Sequence record: NC_054903.1
From: Enterobacteria phage GiZh
DNA length: 64,000 nt
Reading direction: 5' to 3' (one strand)
Shown: positions 44,969-63,551 of the stretch, in pieces
How positions within the stretch are numbered: the first letter of the stretch is position 1
Layout: every line of letters starts with the position of its first letter
The notes under the pieces: model-generated
Told to the model about the DNA's origin: nothing
The model's input: only the letters and a program-made list of their open reading frames with translations
The model's database searches: none
Position numbers and translations under genes: made by a program

Positions 44969-45156
44969 TATTCTTCTACATGTTGTTTACGACCTTTCTT
45001 ATCAATAAAGGTATATTCAACGAATGTTCCAATGTAGTCTTTATCTACATCATGTGGACTATTAATTGGACATTTAGTACGGCAAATGCGTTCCCATTGA
45101 CGAATAATTACTGCTTTGTTTTTAGGATCAAACGGATGCGGGTAATGTACTTTCAT
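44944..45156 (-). CDS. hypothetical protein
   Basis: 70-aa ORF. Confidence 0.4.
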   Translation of the reverse strand: MKVHYPHPFDPKNKAVIIRQWERICRTKCPINSPHDVDKDYIGTFVEYTFIDKKGRKQHVEEYCLKVTWL

Positions 45157-45607
45157 AATCCACCACTATTAAATCAATATCAGGAGTAAACATGTCGATT
45201 AATTTAGAAACCTTATCCCAATCGCCGCCAGCAATACCACAACCTATGCGTGGAATGTAAATTACCGGTTTAAACAAAAGGGTTTCTGCCTGTAGATTTA
45301 ATTCTATCATGCAGTTTACTAAAGCACCATAATCAAGATTAGGACCTGGTTCGTATTGCGTATACAAGTTATAACATATGCCAAAACCATTAGGTTTATG
45401 TTTAAAAACAATAGACATATCGCCTAATTTATCACGAGAACCGTACTCAGTAGTGGTTTTATCTATTTCTAAAATTTTGGGATAGGCTCTTGCTAATTGA
45501 CCCGCTACACCTGAACCCATAGTATGAAAACAATTGCACCCGTGCGCAATAATATTACCTTGAAGAAATAGGGCGACAATATCGCCCTTGATATATTTTG
45601 CAATCAT
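45128..45607 (-). CDS. macro domain protein (ADP-ribose binding/processing)
   Basis: 159 aa; Gly-rich motifs NCFHTMGSGVAGQL and IGCGIAGGDW typical of macro domains. Confidence 0.6.
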   Translation of the reverse strand: MIAKYIKGDIVALFLQGNIIAHGCNCFHTMGSGVAGQLARAYPKILEIDKTTTEYGSRDKLGDMSIVFKHKPNGFGICYNLYTQYEPGPNLDYGALVNCMIELNLQAETLLFKPVIYIPRIGCGIAGGDWDKVSKLIDMFTPDIDLIVVDYESTLPASV

Positions 45608-45945
45608 CTAGTACTCAATCCTCGATTATAAGAATCTACCAAACGGTCAACCATTGAATGACAAGCGGCTTTATCTTTCTCCTCCGCAACTGAACATTCT
45701 AAGGTATTCCACTTTTTAGCATATCGTTTTAATAATGTATCGTTTTTGTATCTACTTGATTTATCTCTTTCTCCGTCTTTATATGCATATATTAATTTCT
45801 GCGCAAATTCAGCTTGGCATGCTTTATTTTTCCCGCAATAATCCGCTGCAGTACGGTTTACATACTCTCTAATTTCAGTATATGATGTATCTGCTAACGC
45901 AGAAAATGAAATTAATCCTATACATAAAACCAAAATTTTAGTCAT
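45604..45945 (-). CDS. secreted Cys-containing protein
   Basis: 113 aa; signal peptide MTKILVLCIGLISFSALA. Confidence 0.5.
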   Translation of the reverse strand: MTKILVLCIGLISFSALADTSYTEIREYVNRTAADYCGKNKACQAEFAQKLIYAYKDGERDKSSRYKNDTLLKRYAKKWNTLECSVAEEKDKAACHSMVDRLVDSYNRGLSTR

Positions 45946-46483
45946 TTACTATTTCCAAAAGTTTATTATTTTTAAGGTAATTAGCCTTTTCTAGGACTTC
46001 AGAAGCATATTTAGAACCTGCTTTAACATTCCATCCCGAATTATAAGAGGATATTGCTTTTCTTATATCGCCCTTATGTATATTTAACCAATAAGAAAGT
46101 TCAATGTACGCCCAGGAAGCTGAATTGGATCGTTTATTCAACATTCTTTTTATTTCAGCATCGGTCATATTATAACCAAGTTCCTTAACTCTTGCTCGCA
46201 TAGTAGGCAAATAATTTTGGAACATTCCATAAGCGTGATGCTTTGGTTTAGATTTTAAATTAACTCCGCCAGAGCTTTCTTGCCATAAAATAGCAGCCAT
46301 TATATGACCTAATCCGCTCTTGTGGATATTTTTGTGTGTTTTATATTTTCCATCCTTAGAAAACTGTTCCCCGAATTGATACGCGTAACGCATGTTATCG
46401 AGTTGGACATTACTGAAAGTATGCTCGGAGCTATGTGCCATCATTGAAATGGCCAATAGACCAGCGAGTAGTGCTTTTCTCAT
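45938..46483 (-). CDS. putative secreted lytic transglycosylase (SLT-like)
   Basis: 181 aa; signal peptide MRKALLAGLLAISMMAHS; catalytic-type ILWQESSGG and downstream YGMFQ. Confidence 0.5.
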   Translation of the reverse strand: MRKALLAGLLAISMMAHSSEHTFSNVQLDNMRYAYQFGEQFSKDGKYKTHKNIHKSGLGHIMAAILWQESSGGVNLKSKPKHHAYGMFQNYLPTMRARVKELGYNMTDAEIKRMLNKRSNSASWAYIELSYWLNIHKGDIRKAISSYNSGWNVKAGSKYASEVLEKANYLKNNKLLEIVND

Positions 46484-46490
46484 GCTTACC

Positions 46491-46952
46491 TCATTGAGTT
46501 TTAATTACTGCTTTAGAAGCCTTTCCTGGTAAACGACGACTGTTGATAATTGCCATCCTGCATTGAAGTGACGGGTTTTTGAACTTCTCATTAGGCTTAC
46601 AAACCGTAAATCCAAGCCAAAGATTTCCATCTGTGATTTCTAAACGTCCAGGACGATATTCAACCCCATCAATAAAATCCTCGTCAATGTCAGGACGCGG
46701 AGGCATACTCAGGAATTCATTAACTTCTAAAACATGGTCTTTTATTTTATGGAATAATTCAAAAACATATGTCTCATCAATCTCCCGTTGAATTGCACGA
46801 TCAAGAAGATGCTGAGAATATTTTAGATGAAACGATGAGACCCCTGCTGCTTTTGATGCCTCACGAATCTCATTGTTAATTTGACGAAACTCCGACTCAA
46901 AATGACGACGAAGCTTATTTCGACGGATAAAAACTTCTGTGTTGATAGTCAT
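46491..46952 (-). CDS. regB: endoribonuclease RegB
   Basis: 153 aa, size and position as T4 regB; early promoter immediately upstream; ATG verified. Confidence 0.7.
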   Translation of the reverse strand: MTINTEVFIRRNKLRRHFESEFRQINNEIREASKAAGVSSFHLKYSQHLLDRAIQREIDETYVFELFHKIKDHVLEVNEFLSMPPRPDIDEDFIDGVEYRPGRLEITDGNLWLGFTVCKPNEKFKNPSLQCRMAIINSRRLPGKASKAVIKTQ

Positions 46953-47592: not shown

Positions 47593-47770
47593 CTAAACGA
47601 ATAGGTTCATGAATGCCATATCCTTGAACAGAAATTTCTGTCGTAGGATAAATTCCATCAATATCACCCATATTCCAGGCTTCATTAAATTGCTGTTCGC
47701 CTGAATTACTAAACCACTCGGCGAAAGCATTTAGCACATCTTTAGAACCTTCAATAATTATCTTTGCCAT
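47549..47770 (-). CDS. hypothetical protein
   Basis: 73-aa ORF. Confidence 0.45.
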   Translation of the reverse strand: MAKIIIEGSKDVLNAFAEWFSNSGEQQFNEAWNMGDIDGIYPTTEISVQGYGIHEPIRLVEYDLCTGEEVKYD

Positions 47771-48132
47771 TACAAACTCTCGGTGAAGGTACGAGCGATA
47801 ACGTCGCGCTGCTGTTCCGGAGTCAGAGAATTAAAGCGAACTGCATAACCTGATACACGGATGGTCAGCTGCGGATATTTTTCCGGATGCTTAACTGCAT
47901 CTTCCAGAGTTTCACGACGCAGAACGTTAACGTTCAGGTGTTGACCACCTTCAATTTTAACTGTAGGCTGTGGTTCAATTTCAATTTCACGGGCATGCAA
48001 ACCGTAGAAAATTTCTGGGTCTACAAAAGAGTCCTCTTTAAAGGTTTTAGAGACAATAATTCGTGCTTGAATACCATCTTCAAAATAAATAGTACCTTTA
48101 TGTGTGCCTTCAAGAATTTGATATGCTTTCAT
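47770..48132 (-). CDS. autonomous glycyl radical cofactor (GrcA/YfiD-like)
   Basis: 120 aa; C-terminal glycyl radical motif [25 protein letters not shown]. Confidence 0.75.
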
Positions 48133-50104: not shown

Positions 50105-50635
<531 letters not shown>

Positions 50636-61249: not shown

Positions 61250-61840
61250 ATGCTCTTTACATTTTTTGATCCGATTGAATATGCGGCCAAAACGGTGAAT
61301 AAAAACGCGCCGACTATTCCTATGACAGATATTTTTAGAAACTATAAAGACTATTTTAAACGCGCTCTTGCGGGATACCGCTTACGTACTTATTATATTA
61401 AAGGTTCACCACGCCCGGAAGAATTAGCAAATGCTATATATGGAAATCCACAGCTGTATTGGGTTTTATTGATGTGTAATGATAATTATGATCCGTATTA
61501 TGGATGGATTACTTCGCAAGAAGCTGCTTATCAAGCATCTATACAAAAATACAAAAACGTAGGTGGAGACCAAATAGTATATCATGTGAATGAAAACGGT
61601 GAAAAATTTTATAATTTAGTATCATATGATGATAATCCATATGTTTGGTATGATAAAGGCGATAAAGCTAAAAAATATCCTCAATATGAAGGAGCGCTTG
61701 CTGCGGTCGATACGTATGAAGCTGCTGTTCTTGAAAATGAAAAACTTCGTCAAATAAAAATAATAGCAAAATCAGACATCAATTCATTTATGAACGACCT
61801 TATACGTATAATGGAGAAATCTTATGGAAATGATAAGTAA
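61250..61840 (+). CDS. 53: baseplate wedge protein gp53
   Basis: 196 aa; ATG 61250 with AGGAGGG RBS; MLFTFFDPIEYAAKTVNKNAPTIPMTDIF... Confidence 0.9.
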   Translation: MLFTFFDPIEYAAKTVNKNAPTIPMTDIFRNYKDYFKRALAGYRLRTYYIKGSPRPEELANAIYGNPQLYWVLLMCNDNYDPYYGWITSQEAAYQASIQKYKNVGGDQIVYHVNENGEKFYNLVSYDDNPYVWYDKGDKAKKYPQYEGALAAVDTYEAAVLENEKLRQIKIIAKSDINSFMNDLIRIMEKSYGNDK

Positions 61841-63551
61841 TAACCTCAATTGGTTTGTTGGTGTTGTTGAAGATAGAATGGACCCATTAAAATTAGGTCG
61901 TGTTCGTGTTCGTGTTGTTGGTCTGCATCCACCTCAAAGAGCACAAGGTGATGTAATGGGTATTCCAACTGAAAAATTACCATGGATGTCAGTTATTCAA
62001 CCTATAACTTCTGCAGCAATGTCAGGAATTGGAGGCTCCGTTACTGGTCCGGTAGAAGGAACTAGAGTTTATGGTCATTTTTTAGACAAATGGAAAACTA
62101 ACGGAATTGTCCTTGGCACGTATGGTGGAATAGTTCGCGAAAAACCGAATAGACTTGAAGGATTTTCTGACCCAACTGGGCAGTATCCTAGACGTTTAGG
62201 AAATGATACGAACGTATTAAACCAAGGCGGAGAAGTAGGATATGATTCGTCTTCTAATATTATCCAAGATAGCAATCTAGATACTGCGATAAATCCCGAT
62301 GATAGACCGCTATCAGAAATTCCAACTGATGATAATCCAAATATGTCAATGGCTGAAATGCTTCGCCGTGATGAAGGATTAAGACTAAAAGTTTATTGGG
62401 ATACTGAAGGATATCCGACAATTGGTATTGGTCATCTTATCATGAAGCAGCCAGTTCGTGATATGACTCAAATTAATAAAGTTTTATCAAAACAAGTTGG
62501 TCGTGAAATTACCGGAAATCCAGGTTCTATTACAATGGAAGAAGCGGTAGCTTTATTTGAACGTGATTTGGCTGATATGCAACGTGACATTAAATCACAT
62601 TCTAAAGTTGGCCCAGTTTGGCAAGCAGTTAATCGTTCTCGTCAAATGGCATTAGAAAATATGGCATTTCAGATGGGTGTTGGCGGTGTAGCTAAATTTA
62701 ACACAATGTTAACTGCTATGTTAGCCGGAGATTGGGAAAAGGCATATAAAGCTGGTCGTGATTCATTGTGGTATCAACAAACAAAAGGCCGTGCATCCCG
62801 TGTTACCATGATTATTCTTACGGGAAATTTAGAATCATATGGCGTTGAAGTGAAAACCCCAGCTAGGTCTCTATCAGCAATGGCTGCTACTGTAGCTAAA
62901 TCTTCTGACCCTGCTGACCCTCCTATTCCAAATGACTCGAGAATTTTATTCAAAGAACCAGTTTCTTCATATAAAGGTGAATATCCTTATGTGCATACAA
63001 TGGAAACTGAAAGTGGACATATTCAGGAATTTGATGATACCCCTGGGCAAGAACGATATAGATTAGTTCATCCAACTGGGACTTATGAAGAAGTATCACC
63101 GTCAGGGAGAAGAACAAGAAAAACTGTTGATAATTTGTATGATATAACCAACGCTGATGGTAATTTTTTGGTAGCTGGCGATAAAAAGACTAACGTCGGT
63201 GGGTCAGAAATTTATTACAACATGGATAATCGTCTCCACCAAATAGATGGAAGCAATACAATATTTGTGCGTGGCGATGAAACTAAGACGGTTGAAGGTA
63301 ATGGAACTATCCTAGTTAAAGGTAATGTTACTATTGTAGTTGAAGGTAATGCTGACATTACAGTTAAAGGAGATGCTACCACTTTAGTTGAAGGAAATCA
63401 GACTAATACAGTAAATGGAAATCTTTCTTGGAAAGTTGCTGGGACAGTTGATTGGGACGTTGGTGGTGATTGGACAGAAAAAATGGCATCTATGAGTTCT
63501 ATTTCATCTGGTCAATACACAATTGATGGATCGAGGATTGACATTGGCTAA
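61824..63551 (+). CDS. 5: baseplate hub / tail lysozyme gp5
   Basis: 575 aa; MEMISNNLNWFVGVVEDRMDPLKLGRVRVRVVGLHPP, central lysozyme domain, C-terminal beta-helix VEGN repeats. Confidence 0.97.
   Translation: MEMISNNLNWFVGVVEDRMDPLKLGRVRVRVVGLHPPQRAQGDVMGIPTEKLPWMSVIQPITSAAMSGIGGSVTGPVEGTRVYGHFLDKWKTNGIVLGTYGGIVREKPNRLEGFSDPTGQYPRRLGNDTNVLNQGGEVGYDSSSNIIQDSNLDTAINPDDRPLSEIPTDDNPNMSMAEMLRRDEGLRLKVYWDTEGYPTIGIGHLIMKQPVRDMTQINKVLSKQVGREITGNPGSITMEEAVALFERDLADMQRDIKSHSKVGPVWQAVNRSRQMALENMAFQMGVGGVAKFNTMLTAMLAGDWEKAYKAGRDSLWYQQTKGRASRVTMIILTGNLESYGVEVKTPARSLSAMAATVAKSSDPADPPIPNDSRILFKEPVSSYKGEYPYVHTMETESGHIQEFDDTPGQERYRLVHPTGTYEEVSPSGRRTRKTVDNLYDITNADGNFLVAGDKKTNVGGSEIYYNMDNRLHQIDGSNTIFVRGDETKTVEGNGTILVKGNVTIVVEGNADITVKGDATTLVEGNQTNTVNGNLSWKVAGTVDWDVGGDWTEKMASMSSISSGQYTIDGSRIDIG

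Follow-up and report, generated by a model that had tools for sequence, protein, structure and literature searches.

Early gene vs.1 of a T4-type phage encodes a predicted exported lytic transglycosylase of the SLT family

Why would a T4-type phage that carries two lysozymes also make what looks like a further cell wall enzyme, predicted to go to the periplasm? An open reading frame of Enterobacteria phage GiZh (NC_054903.1) raises this question, which we addressed computationally in a 64,000-nucleotide stretch of that genome, hereafter the window. The frame occupies 45938..46483 on the minus strand, exactly where the first-pass annotation had placed it; it begins with ATG, includes its stop codon in these coordinates, and encodes a precursor of 181 aa with a computed mass of 20.7 kDa. 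The translation is 100% identical to T4 ORF 61.4 (gene vs.1) and is assigned to PHROG 600, and the gene is flanked by regB and vs within the synteny regB-vs.1-vs-tk.4; by sequence, we identify the frame as the vs.1 gene of a Tequatrovirus, a T4-type phage, and we refer to its predicted product as Vs.1.

The gene is located in the early regB cluster and adjoins neither e nor t. Its Shine-Dalgarno sequence, read from the sequence as GAGG at 46489..46492 on the minus strand, 5 nt upstream of the ATG, overlaps the regB stop codon (46491..46493) and corresponds to the potential rRNA binding site annotated in X04567. The plus strand beneath vs.1 holds only ORFs of 33-46 aa, none with supporting evidence; around the gene, a promoter scan returned 20 promoter-like sites, no excess over the 21.3 expected from shuffles, and a terminator scan returned 7 sites against 2.9 in shuffles, a modest excess with no site informative for vs.1. 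Lysozyme e (endolysin, 164 aa; 50105..50599, minus strand; Pfam Phage_lysozyme PF00959, E=1.4e-13) and the tail-associated lysozyme gp5 (575 aa; 61824..63551, plus strand; Pfam Gp5_OB, Phage_lysozyme PF00959 and Gp5_C) both lie in the window, so Vs.1 would be a third wall enzyme beside them, as had been supposed.

Pfam SLT (PF01464) scored residues 61-154 of Vs.1 at 25.1 bits, above its gathering score of 21.3 (E=1.4e-5), and 24 of 26 relatives matched SLT by themselves (E<=0.01), the best at E=1.3e-7; a search of NCBIfam gave no family for Vs.1 and none for the downstream gene product, Vs. Because the Pfam match exceeds its cut-off, nearly all relatives match too, the sequence is identical to that of T4 and the protein has been detected, we do not regard the resemblance as chance.

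The QESSGG...YGMFQ pattern from which the first-pass annotation argued is present as W67-Q-E-S-S-G-G73 (46265..46285, minus strand) and A84-Y-G-M-F-Q-N-Y91 (46211..46234, minus strand), and beyond its list we found a further SLT motif, S146-Y-N-S-G150 (46034..46048, minus strand), and a conserved C-terminal stretch that may be another, G156-S-K-Y159-A-S-E-V163 (45995..46018, minus strand). The first motif contains the predicted catalytic Glu69, whose codon we checked by hand at 46277..46279. When the Vs.1 family was aligned with the catalytic domains of Slt70, EmtA, MltD and MltC by hhalign (E=0.0019, 'probability' 14%), the register set QE69S on the ES motif, G86-M-F-Q89, 20 residues beyond E69, on the E. 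coli GLMQ motif, and SYNSG on AYNAG; E69 itself was paired with the catalytic Glu of each enzyme: E505 in the Slt70 precursor, E64 in EmtA, E125 in MltD and E217 in MltC. The Slt70, EmtA, MltC and MltD domains also share an invariant Tyr near their end, of which the Y159 stretch is a possible counterpart, placed by position, with hhalign ending at residue 150.

These positions are strongly conserved. E69 is kept in 26/26 close relatives and in all 135 representatives of the wider family (sequences sharing 50% identity or less), position 70 is S or T in 135/135, and the close family shows no variation at G86, F88 or Q89. Across the representatives, 130/135 have G86, and 120/135 have Q (72) or H (48) at position 89; motif III retains Y147 in 133/135, N148 in 114/135 and G150 in 134/135, and the C-terminal stretch retains Y159 in 134/135 and V or I at position 163 in 130/135. 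An inert peptidoglycan-binding or decoy protein that has merely retained a lysozyme-like fold would suit the divergent sequence, the weak similarity to characterised enzymes and an activity that is predicted only; with the catalytic Glu and all substrate-groove motifs invariant or nearly so in the 135 representatives, a pseudo-enzyme is not expected, and we judge that reading highly improbable.

The predicted structure agrees with the motifs. An AlphaFold (AF2) model of Vs.1 (pLDDT 88.6, pTM 0.82) was compared with the PDB by Foldseek, and the roughly 20 top matches were all GH23 or lysozyme-like (probability ~1, TM 0.44-0.54, E 0.008-0.2), among them MltD, g-type lysozyme, GH23 chitinase, Slt, LtgA, phi6 P5 and T7 gp16; in the viral library BFVD, the structural matches were all SLT or LT_GEWL proteins. 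The weak Foldseek E-values and the hhalign 'probability' of 14% mark Vs.1 as a divergent family member. Searching PDB chain sequences with Vs.1 alone (phmmer) or with the family profile yielded no lytic transglycosylase and only chance-level matches; g-type lysozyme was the sole wall enzyme in the profile search, and a weak match (E=0.45).

That lysozyme bears on chemistry, since GH23 holds both hydrolytic enzymes and lytic transglycosylases. Atlantic cod g-type lysozyme (3gxk) also ranked second among the PDB structural matches (E=0.01, TM 0.50), as would fit a hydrolytic muramidase of the goose type. The accessory acids of GEWL are an Asp before and another Asp just after the GLMQ motif; in the Vs.1 family no acidic residue is conserved in the E69-G86 loop, and none after Q89, which is followed by Asn90 in every close relative. 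The Pfam match, moreover, is to SLT, and the ES, GxxQ and YNxG set is that of family-1 lytic transglycosylases, leaving a hydrolytic Vs.1 unlikely. The SLT-like murein-cleaving enzyme proposed at first is thus favoured by the Pfam score, the hhalign register, the GH23-only Foldseek matches and the invariant Glu, and from fold and motifs in silico Vs.1 is most likely a family-1 lytic transglycosylase of GH23.

At the N-terminus of Vs.1, a rule-based scan, rather than a trained predictor, called a Sec signal peptide, MRKALLAGLLAISMMAHS, at codons 1-18 (46430..46483, minus strand), laid out as MRK, then ALLAGLLAISMMA, then the cleavage site AHS before S; it has 2 basic residues, a 13-residue hydrophobic core, a Kyte-Doolittle mean of 2.4 over a 10-residue window and an A-H-S site at residues 16-18 (-3/-1). 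Signal peptidase I is predicted to cut between S18 and S19, that is, after MRKALLAGLLAISMMAHS and before SEH, leaving a mature protein computed at 163 aa, 18.8 kDa and pI 9.65. AF2 rendered the signal peptide with low confidence as a detached helix at residues 3-14. The pattern recurs in all 26 close relatives and in 117 of 134 distant representatives, and in one distant homologue annotated without a signal peptide it was restored from the correct upstream ATG; the hosts named among the matches are all Gram-negative. Vs.1 is accordingly predicted to be exported via the Sec pathway with a cleavable type I signal peptide. The first-pass annotation would have yielded its case to a missing SLT fold or a missing signal peptide, and both are present in these predictions. 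We considered and rejected a lipoprotein with an L-x-x-C lipobox of the MltA-E type: Vs.1 has zero Cys, and a lipobox-like string occurs in only 2/134 relatives.

Immediately downstream lies vs (45604..45945, minus strand; 113 aa), which overlaps the vs.1 stop by 8 nt (AATGACTAA). Vs has its own predicted signal peptide, MTKILVLCIGLISFSALA followed by DTS, and four Cys in its mature part. In 47/47 T4-like loci vs directly adjoins a vs.1 homologue, and across these loci Vs always has a signal peptide, in some cases with a lipobox, and nearly always the four Cys. Its predicted structure is a four-helix fold (pLDDT 79) for which no significant match was found among PDB structures, a DUF1311 entry appearing at E ~7, and we therefore make no claim of an inhibitor fold. 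Vs is, judging from these loci, a probable exported partner of Vs.1. We can go further only speculatively, in a joint claim with three parts. It is conceivable, if rather doubtful, that vs.1 and vs form one exported module, in which a periplasmic lytic transglycosylase is paired with a small disulfide-bonded four-helix regulator, inhibitor or targeting partner; such a module would resemble the control of gp5 by Spackle and of lysozymes by Ivy, MliC and PliG. We regard as similarly tentative the idea that the decades-old label of Vs as a cytoplasmic 'valyl-tRNA synthetase modifier' reflects a locus misassigned to this frame, or is incomplete, and, at the same low level of belief, that the recently reported minimal-medium (M9-type) defect of vs mutants might be an envelope rather than a translation phenotype. 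The conserved coupling of vs.1 to an exported Vs gives testable ground on which to re-examine the classic vs product.

What does the phage use Vs.1 for? During T4 infection, vs.1 RNA is early and the protein is detected and placed in the middle class (PMC9697503). We rejected Vs.1 as a virion protein on its signal peptide and early timing. In the 2025 HIDEN-SEQ preprint (10.1101/2025.11.20.689424), vs.1 is non-essential, with 46/52 TA sites hit; its mean insertion counts were 15-23 against 180-650 in neighbour genes, low figures that could come partly from polarity on the translationally coupled downstream vs or from local insertion bias. Between K-12 and UPEC CFE299, vs.1 insertions changed by a log2FC of -1.20 (adjusted p=0.015), and between LB and M9 by -0.87 (p=0.0055, adjusted p=0.155) in the same preprint, which suggests that insertions cost fitness, significantly so on the uropathogenic host. 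The gene is dispensable for plaques on K-12 in rich medium, and its loss lowers competitive fitness, more on the uropathogenic host.

These data also bear on lysis. Other phages produce exported wall enzymes before lysis, namely SAR and signal-peptide endolysins, and Vs.1 might be an accessory endolysin of this kind that takes a direct part in lysis, restrained by a SAR-type tether or by Vs until the holin fires. The tightly coupled exported partner would suit such a role, as would Felixounavirus HY02, in which the Vs.1 homologue follows rIIA-rIIB and precedes the spanin genes by about 1.2 kb. We reject the tether, because the uncharged N-terminal run of Vs.1 is 16 aa (the family median; at least 22 in only 8%), too short for a SAR segment of about 20 or more, and because the AHS cleavage site is present. 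T4 e mutants are known to fail at lysis, so Vs.1 cannot replace the endolysin, and the gene lies in the early regB cluster, apart from e and t. Nor does its transposon profile resemble those of lysis genes, with zero insertions in t (holin) and nearly zero in pseT.3 and pseT.2, which encode the spanins (10.1101/2025.11.20.689424), against a non-essential vs.1. We consider an accessory endolysin decidedly improbable.

The first-pass annotation had also raised superinfection exclusion and cell wall remodelling, and we found nothing that singles out either. Vs.1 could act in exclusion or in resistance to lysis from without, beside Imm and Spackle, a role that we think improbable; in its specific form, an early change to the sacculus would make it harder for T-even phages arriving later to penetrate, which appears improbable too. 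Vs.1 shares timing and predicted compartment with Spackle, an early periplasmic protein (PMC7677548), and vs.1 insertion mutants are under-represented in competitive liquid culture, where superinfection occurs. Glycan-strand cutting, however, should help the tail tube through rather than block it, the Vs.1 family extends to Kuttervirus and Felixounavirus, and our literature search found no paper connecting vs.1 with exclusion. Insertions in sp (spackle) were not depleted in the same screen (counts 184-211; 10.1101/2025.11.20.689424), so the assay seems not to select for exclusion.

The reading that we favour, and hold to be likely overall, is that Vs.1 is an early-made, exported GH23 lytic transglycosylase accessory to infection. 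The gene is transcribed early with regB, and the protein builds up in the middle period. By sequence rules, the 18-residue signal peptide would lead it into the Sec pathway, and signal peptidase I would cut after Ala-His-Ser18, freeing into the infected cell's periplasm a basic mature form of 163 residues that lacks cysteine. There, this putative minimal single-domain family-1 enzyme would use Glu69 as the single acid/base catalyst to cut the MurNAc-GlcNAc bond of peptidoglycan and, going by its family, would most likely do so non-hydrolytically, leaving 1,6-anhydro-MurNAc ends. Lacking a lipid anchor, a LysM and a superhelical domain, it is expected to have a diffuse action, comparable to that of MltE's bare catalytic core. 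The conserved gene coupling leads us to think that Vs.1 and its co-translated exported partner Vs probably cooperate. We suggest that Vs.1 is an accessory and not the lysis enzyme, its most likely role being to remodel or pre-nick the sacculus of the infected cell for efficient infection and release.

How new is this? The first-pass annotation called such an enzyme unusual, and that was an overstatement. The gene is T4 vs.1, whose SLT similarity was noted in a comparative-genomics paper of 2006 (PMC1524935), which also cites earlier PSI-BLAST matches for T4 vs.1. We found relatives in 2,012 phage records from at least three groups of virulent myoviruses; beyond T4-type phages, the family occurs in Kuttervirus and Felixounavirus. 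The similarity was in print in 2003 and again in 2006, and about 2,000 phage genomes carry relatives, so the finding was known before and is no rarity. What our result adds is small: a T4 gene already catalogued has been identified again, together with a domain prediction already in print. Our literature search found no biochemical assay of Vs.1, only that 2006 mention (PMC1524935). Should experiment confirm the prediction, T4 would gain a third wall-active enzyme, periplasmic and present long before lysis, and its early wall-active function would belong to a class without a described role; the contribution to fitness that the transposon data suggest, most of all with a clinical E. coli isolate as host, is relevant to host range and to phage therapy.

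The closest comparison is with the host's own enzymes. Slt70, MltC, MltD and MltE/EmtA of E. coli share with Vs.1 the ES, GxxQ and YNxG motifs in the same order and spacing, the distance from catalytic E to Q being 20 residues in Vs.1 and 18 in Slt70, as well as an all-helical lysozyme-like fold and periplasmic export, which for Vs.1 is predicted. Unlike them, Vs.1 is encoded by a phage, is made early and consists of nothing but a catalytic domain behind a signal peptide predicted to be cleaved: MltC, MltD and MltE are lipoproteins, MltD carries LysM and Slt70 a superhelical ring, and Vs.1 has none of the three. Its second motif is GMFQ followed by a family-specific N-Y-L-P, unlike the E. coli GLMQ, and its sequence similarity to these enzymes is marginal (hhalign E=0.0019, no phmmer match). 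Goose-type lysozyme has the same fold, and its one catalytic Glu likewise sits in an ES-like sequence; its accessory Asp residues have no conserved counterparts in Vs.1, whose Pfam family is SLT.

Architecturally, Vs.1 may resemble VirB1, IpgF/IagB, P19 of plasmid R1 and EtgA, each a Sec signal peptide with one SLT domain of about 150-170 residues. Specialised transglycosylases of the VirB1 type locally open the sacculus, from the periplasm, for a trans-envelope process; we know of no envelope-spanning machine assembled in early T4 infection. A tblastn search of Vs.1 against 72,556 plasmids returned nothing at E<=1, and we therefore see no close kinship with the conjugation-type enzymes.

Among phage proteins, the T7 core protein gp16 (9jyy_I, 7eyb_I), with its transglycosylase in the N-terminal domain, and the phi6 lysin P5 (4dq5) have the GH23 fold in common with Vs.1 as PDB matches, SLT domains of internal virion and tape-measure proteins are among its viral-library matches, and its weak PHROG matches include lytic tail and internal virion proteins. 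Virion-borne transglycosylases form part of large structural proteins that come in from outside at entry; Vs.1, by contrast, is small and stand-alone, has a predicted signal peptide and is made in the infected cell from early transcripts, and T4 already has an entry enzyme in gp5. Within T4, Spackle (sp) and Imm have the same timing, compartment and non-essential accessory standing as Vs.1 (PMC7677548), but their folds and activities are unrelated to its own: Spackle inhibits the gp5 lysozyme, whereas Vs.1 is predicted to cut the wall.

The first-pass annotation had read the gene discussed here as encoding a secreted SLT-like murein hydrolase. It is a single minus-strand ORF (45938..46483) that starts with ATG and runs for 181 codons, and its product is 100% identical to that of gene vs.1 (T4p112, UniProt P13311), listed as ORF 61.4 in the 1986 T4 sequence (X04567). 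The surrounding DNA is 99.0-99.4% identical to the best 25 of many Tequatrovirus (T4-type) genomes, and GiZh is a close T4 relative, not the reference strain; Vs has 113 aa here versus 115 aa in T4, and Tk.4 159 aa versus 155 aa in reference T4. Also on the minus strand lie regB (46491..46952; Pfam REGB_T4, E=5.9e-69), vs (45604..45945), which adjoins vs.1, and the macro-domain gene tk.4 (45128..45607; Pfam Macro E=6e-8), whose T4 product was named AdfM, an anti-DarTG2 factor, in the 2025 HIDEN-SEQ transposon preprint (10.1101/2025.11.20.689424). The vs.1 Shine-Dalgarno GAGG overlaps the regB TGA stop (aaTGAGGt, 46489..46493) and the ATG of vs lies in the 3' end of vs.1, giving an 8-nt overlap (AATGACTAA); spacings of 7, -8 and -4 nt for regB/vs.1, vs.1/vs and vs/tk.4 suggest that the four genes form one translationally coupled early unit. 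The minus-strand vs.6 (47770..48132), a 120-aa ORF whose relatives are annotated as a GrcA-like autonomous glycyl-radical cofactor, has been reported as a Gly_radical match (PMC1524935).

The QESSGG and YGMFQ strings behind the original call are both present, within W67-Q-E-S-S-G-G73 and A84-Y-G-M-F-Q-N-Y91, and two further stretches, S146-Y-N-S-G150 and G156-S-K-Y-A-S-E-V163, are conserved. Pfam SLT (PF01464) scored Vs.1 at 25.1 bits (curated cut-off 21.3; E=1.4e-5) and was matched independently by 24 of 26 close relatives (best E=1.3e-7), so the pattern is not a chance one. Plain sequence searches of PDB chains returned nothing useful, and we therefore regard Vs.1 as a divergent member. Profile-profile alignment of the 26-member family with the catalytic domains of Slt70, EmtA/MltE, MltD and MltC, taken from the E. 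coli MG1655 genome, came out in the expected register (E=0.0019): QE69S is paired with the catalytic ES motif, GMFQ with GLMQ and SYNSG with AYNAG.

An AlphaFold2 model of Vs.1 (pLDDT 88.6, pTM 0.82) had low confidence only in the signal peptide and last residues; its best PDB matches were Pseudomonas MltD, cod g-type lysozyme and Ralstonia GH23 chitinase, with Slt, LtgA, phi6 lysin and T7 gp16 also among them. No PDB match fell outside the lysozyme-like superfamily until scores became meaningless, and matches among predicted viral structures were named SLT or LT_GEWL. When 1.84 billion representatives were scanned in full with HMMER (E<=0.001), 423 Vs.1-family clusters emerged, mostly of 160-190 aa. 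Across 134 of these 423 representatives aligned with the T4 protein (n=135), Glu69 and Ser/Thr70 are each present in 135/135, Gly86 in 130, Tyr147 in 133, and Gly150 and Tyr159 in 134 each; this retention of motifs and of catalytic and groove residues is not expected of a pseudo-enzyme, a reading that we rejected on the invariant Glu69. Profile alignment, structure and conservation are three independent lines that agree, and with the Pfam match they support the SLT-like interpretation. In goose-type lysozymes, accessory Asp residues flank the GxxQ motif; neither the 26- nor the 135-sequence alignment has a second conserved acidic residue beside it, which favours a predicted lytic-transglycosylase chemistry over goose-type-lysozyme hydrolysis.

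The N-terminus of Vs.1, MRKALLAGLLAISMMAHS followed by SEH, combines two basic residues with a hydrophobic core, whose best 10-residue window has a Kyte-Doolittle mean of 2.4, and a small-residue -3/-1 site (Ala16 and Ser18); consistent with the signal peptide originally proposed, a rule-based scan found this n/h/c pattern in 26/26 close relatives despite differing residues. A hydrophobic N-terminal segment occurs in 117 of 134 full-length distant representatives, most of the exceptions resembling truncated gene calls. The homologue in Cronobacter phage vB_CsaM_leE (NC_048646.1; L010 2270..2938), annotated as 170 aa from an internal ATG, lacks a signal peptide as annotated; an upstream ATG at 2291 restores MKKIIFAASIFLCSFSGNA, so this exception is an annotation error. 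Vs.1 has an uncharged N-terminal stretch of 16 residues, equal to the family median (>=22 in 8% only), a length that fits a cleavable signal peptide rather than a membrane anchor or the longer SAR domain. Vs.1 contains no cysteine and therefore no lipobox, which excludes a lipoprotein. By these rules we infer export by signal peptide, with a predicted mature protein of 163 aa (18.8 kDa, pI 9.65).

The neighbouring Vs also appears to be exported. In 47/47 T4-like IMG/VR loci (L011-L057), a vs-type ORF of 105-122 aa (two truncated) starts -8 to +3 nt from the stop of the vs.1 homologue, and it is kept down to 43% Vs.1 identity, even where Vs can hardly be recognised. All encode an N-terminal signal peptide, and nearly always four cysteines spaced C-x5-6-C … C-x8-11-C; for Vs of the window the Sec signal peptide is predicted as MTKILVLCIGLISFSALA (followed by DTS), with four conserved Cys and a predicted mature form of 95 aa (11.0 kDa), and one lineage (L041, L042, L045 and L056) carries a lipoprotein signal (…ALSGC). 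The T4-type Vs model is four-helix (pLDDT 79), and a structural search with it found no significant relative. Records annotate Vs as 'valyl-tRNA synthetase modifier', the 1986 X04567 record giving 'ORF 60.9' only; predicted export, disulfides and the lipobox variant would be hard to reconcile with binding to cytoplasmic valyl-tRNA synthetase. In phage leE, vs lies ~1 kb downstream of the Vs.1 homologue, not adjacent. Outside Straboviridae, Vs.1 homologues occur without a vs-type neighbour, and the enzyme can therefore do without this partner; no vs-like neighbour accompanies the homologues of Felixounavirus HY02 (L008 2501..3049; with signal peptide, directly after rIIA-rIIB and ~1.2 kb upstream of spanin genes) or Kuttervirus SenALZ1 (L007 2453..3070; 205 aa, with signal peptide, in a hypothetical-gene neighbourhood).

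In the vs.1 entries of a T4 time-course omics supplement (PMC9697503), the gene is classed as early RNA and middle protein; the protein is therefore made. The text of the HIDEN-SEQ preprint passes over vs.1, whose data stand only in its tables (10.1101/2025.11.20.689424). In K-12 in LB, vs.1 (46/52 TA sites with insertions) and vs are both non-essential. Mean reads in liquid competition controls were 15-23 for vs.1 and 27-34 for vs, against 179 for regB, 290 for tk.4, 265 for vs.4 and 650 for vs.3, a deficit of roughly 5-40-fold below flanking genes (Extended Data Table 6) that possibly reflects local insertion bias. Between K-12 and the UPEC isolate CFE299, log2FC was -1.20 for vs.1 (adj. p=0.015, among 11 significant genes) and -1.04 for vs (not significant); between LB and M9-glucose it was -0.87 for vs.1 (p=0.0055, adj. 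p=0.155) and -2.19 for vs (adj. p about 0, the top hit), and a clean vs knockout plated poorly on minimal medium (10.1101/2025.11.20.689424). Throughout these data, insertions in vs.1 may be polar on vs. Taken as they stand, the tables show vs.1 as an accessory gene that makes a real, host-dependent contribution to fitness and resembles vs in behaviour.

As the most likely mechanism, we propose that vs.1 is transcribed early along with regB and that Vs.1 is exported through Sec and its precursor cut after Ser18. The basic GH23 domain thus set free in the periplasm would use Glu69 to cut glycan strands, probably leaving 1,6-anhydro ends. A role as the lysis enzyme was rejected because T4 e mutants do not lyse and because vs.1 is non-essential, unlike t, where insertions were absent, and pseT.3 and pseT.2, the spanin genes, which took hardly any. 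Superinfection exclusion, raised in the first-pass annotation, is a possible role that nothing supports specifically, and spackle insertions were not depleted in the HIDEN-SEQ screen (10.1101/2025.11.20.689424). Most economically, Vs.1 would remodel or pre-nick the sacculus of the infected cell to aid productive infection or release, with a larger effect on some hosts and media than on others.

Calling Vs.1 a third wall enzyme is literally correct, since the window also contains lysozyme e (50105..50599) and gp5 (61824..63551), each with a Phage_lysozyme domain unrelated to the SLT domain of Vs.1; calling it unusual does not hold. A search of 50,697 phage records returned homologues in 2,012, including Straboviridae, Ackermannviridae (Kuttervirus SenALZ1) and Felixounavirus HY02; every host that its output names is Gram-negative. 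Some GenBank/UniProt homologue entries are already named 'Transglycosylase SLT domain-containing protein'. Other GenBank/UniRef labels for homologues include 'endoribonuclease', 'site-specific RNA endonuclease' and 'C-type lysozyme/alpha-lactalbumin family protein', and public records labelling vs 'valyl-tRNA synthetase' also exist; such labels look like names slipped from the neighbour regB, or over-shortened names. Our literature searches on Vs.1 turned up neither biochemical work nor targeted genetics; a passage in Nolan et al. (PMC1524935) treats SLT similarity as corroborating earlier PSI-BLAST lysozyme matches for T4 vs.1. The enzyme is thus neither new nor unusual: both the gene and its domain prediction were already on record, and the family is widespread; the value of the locus lies in its unexplained biology, the recent fitness data and the putatively exported vs.1-vs pair, the only part that we would call a fresh lead.
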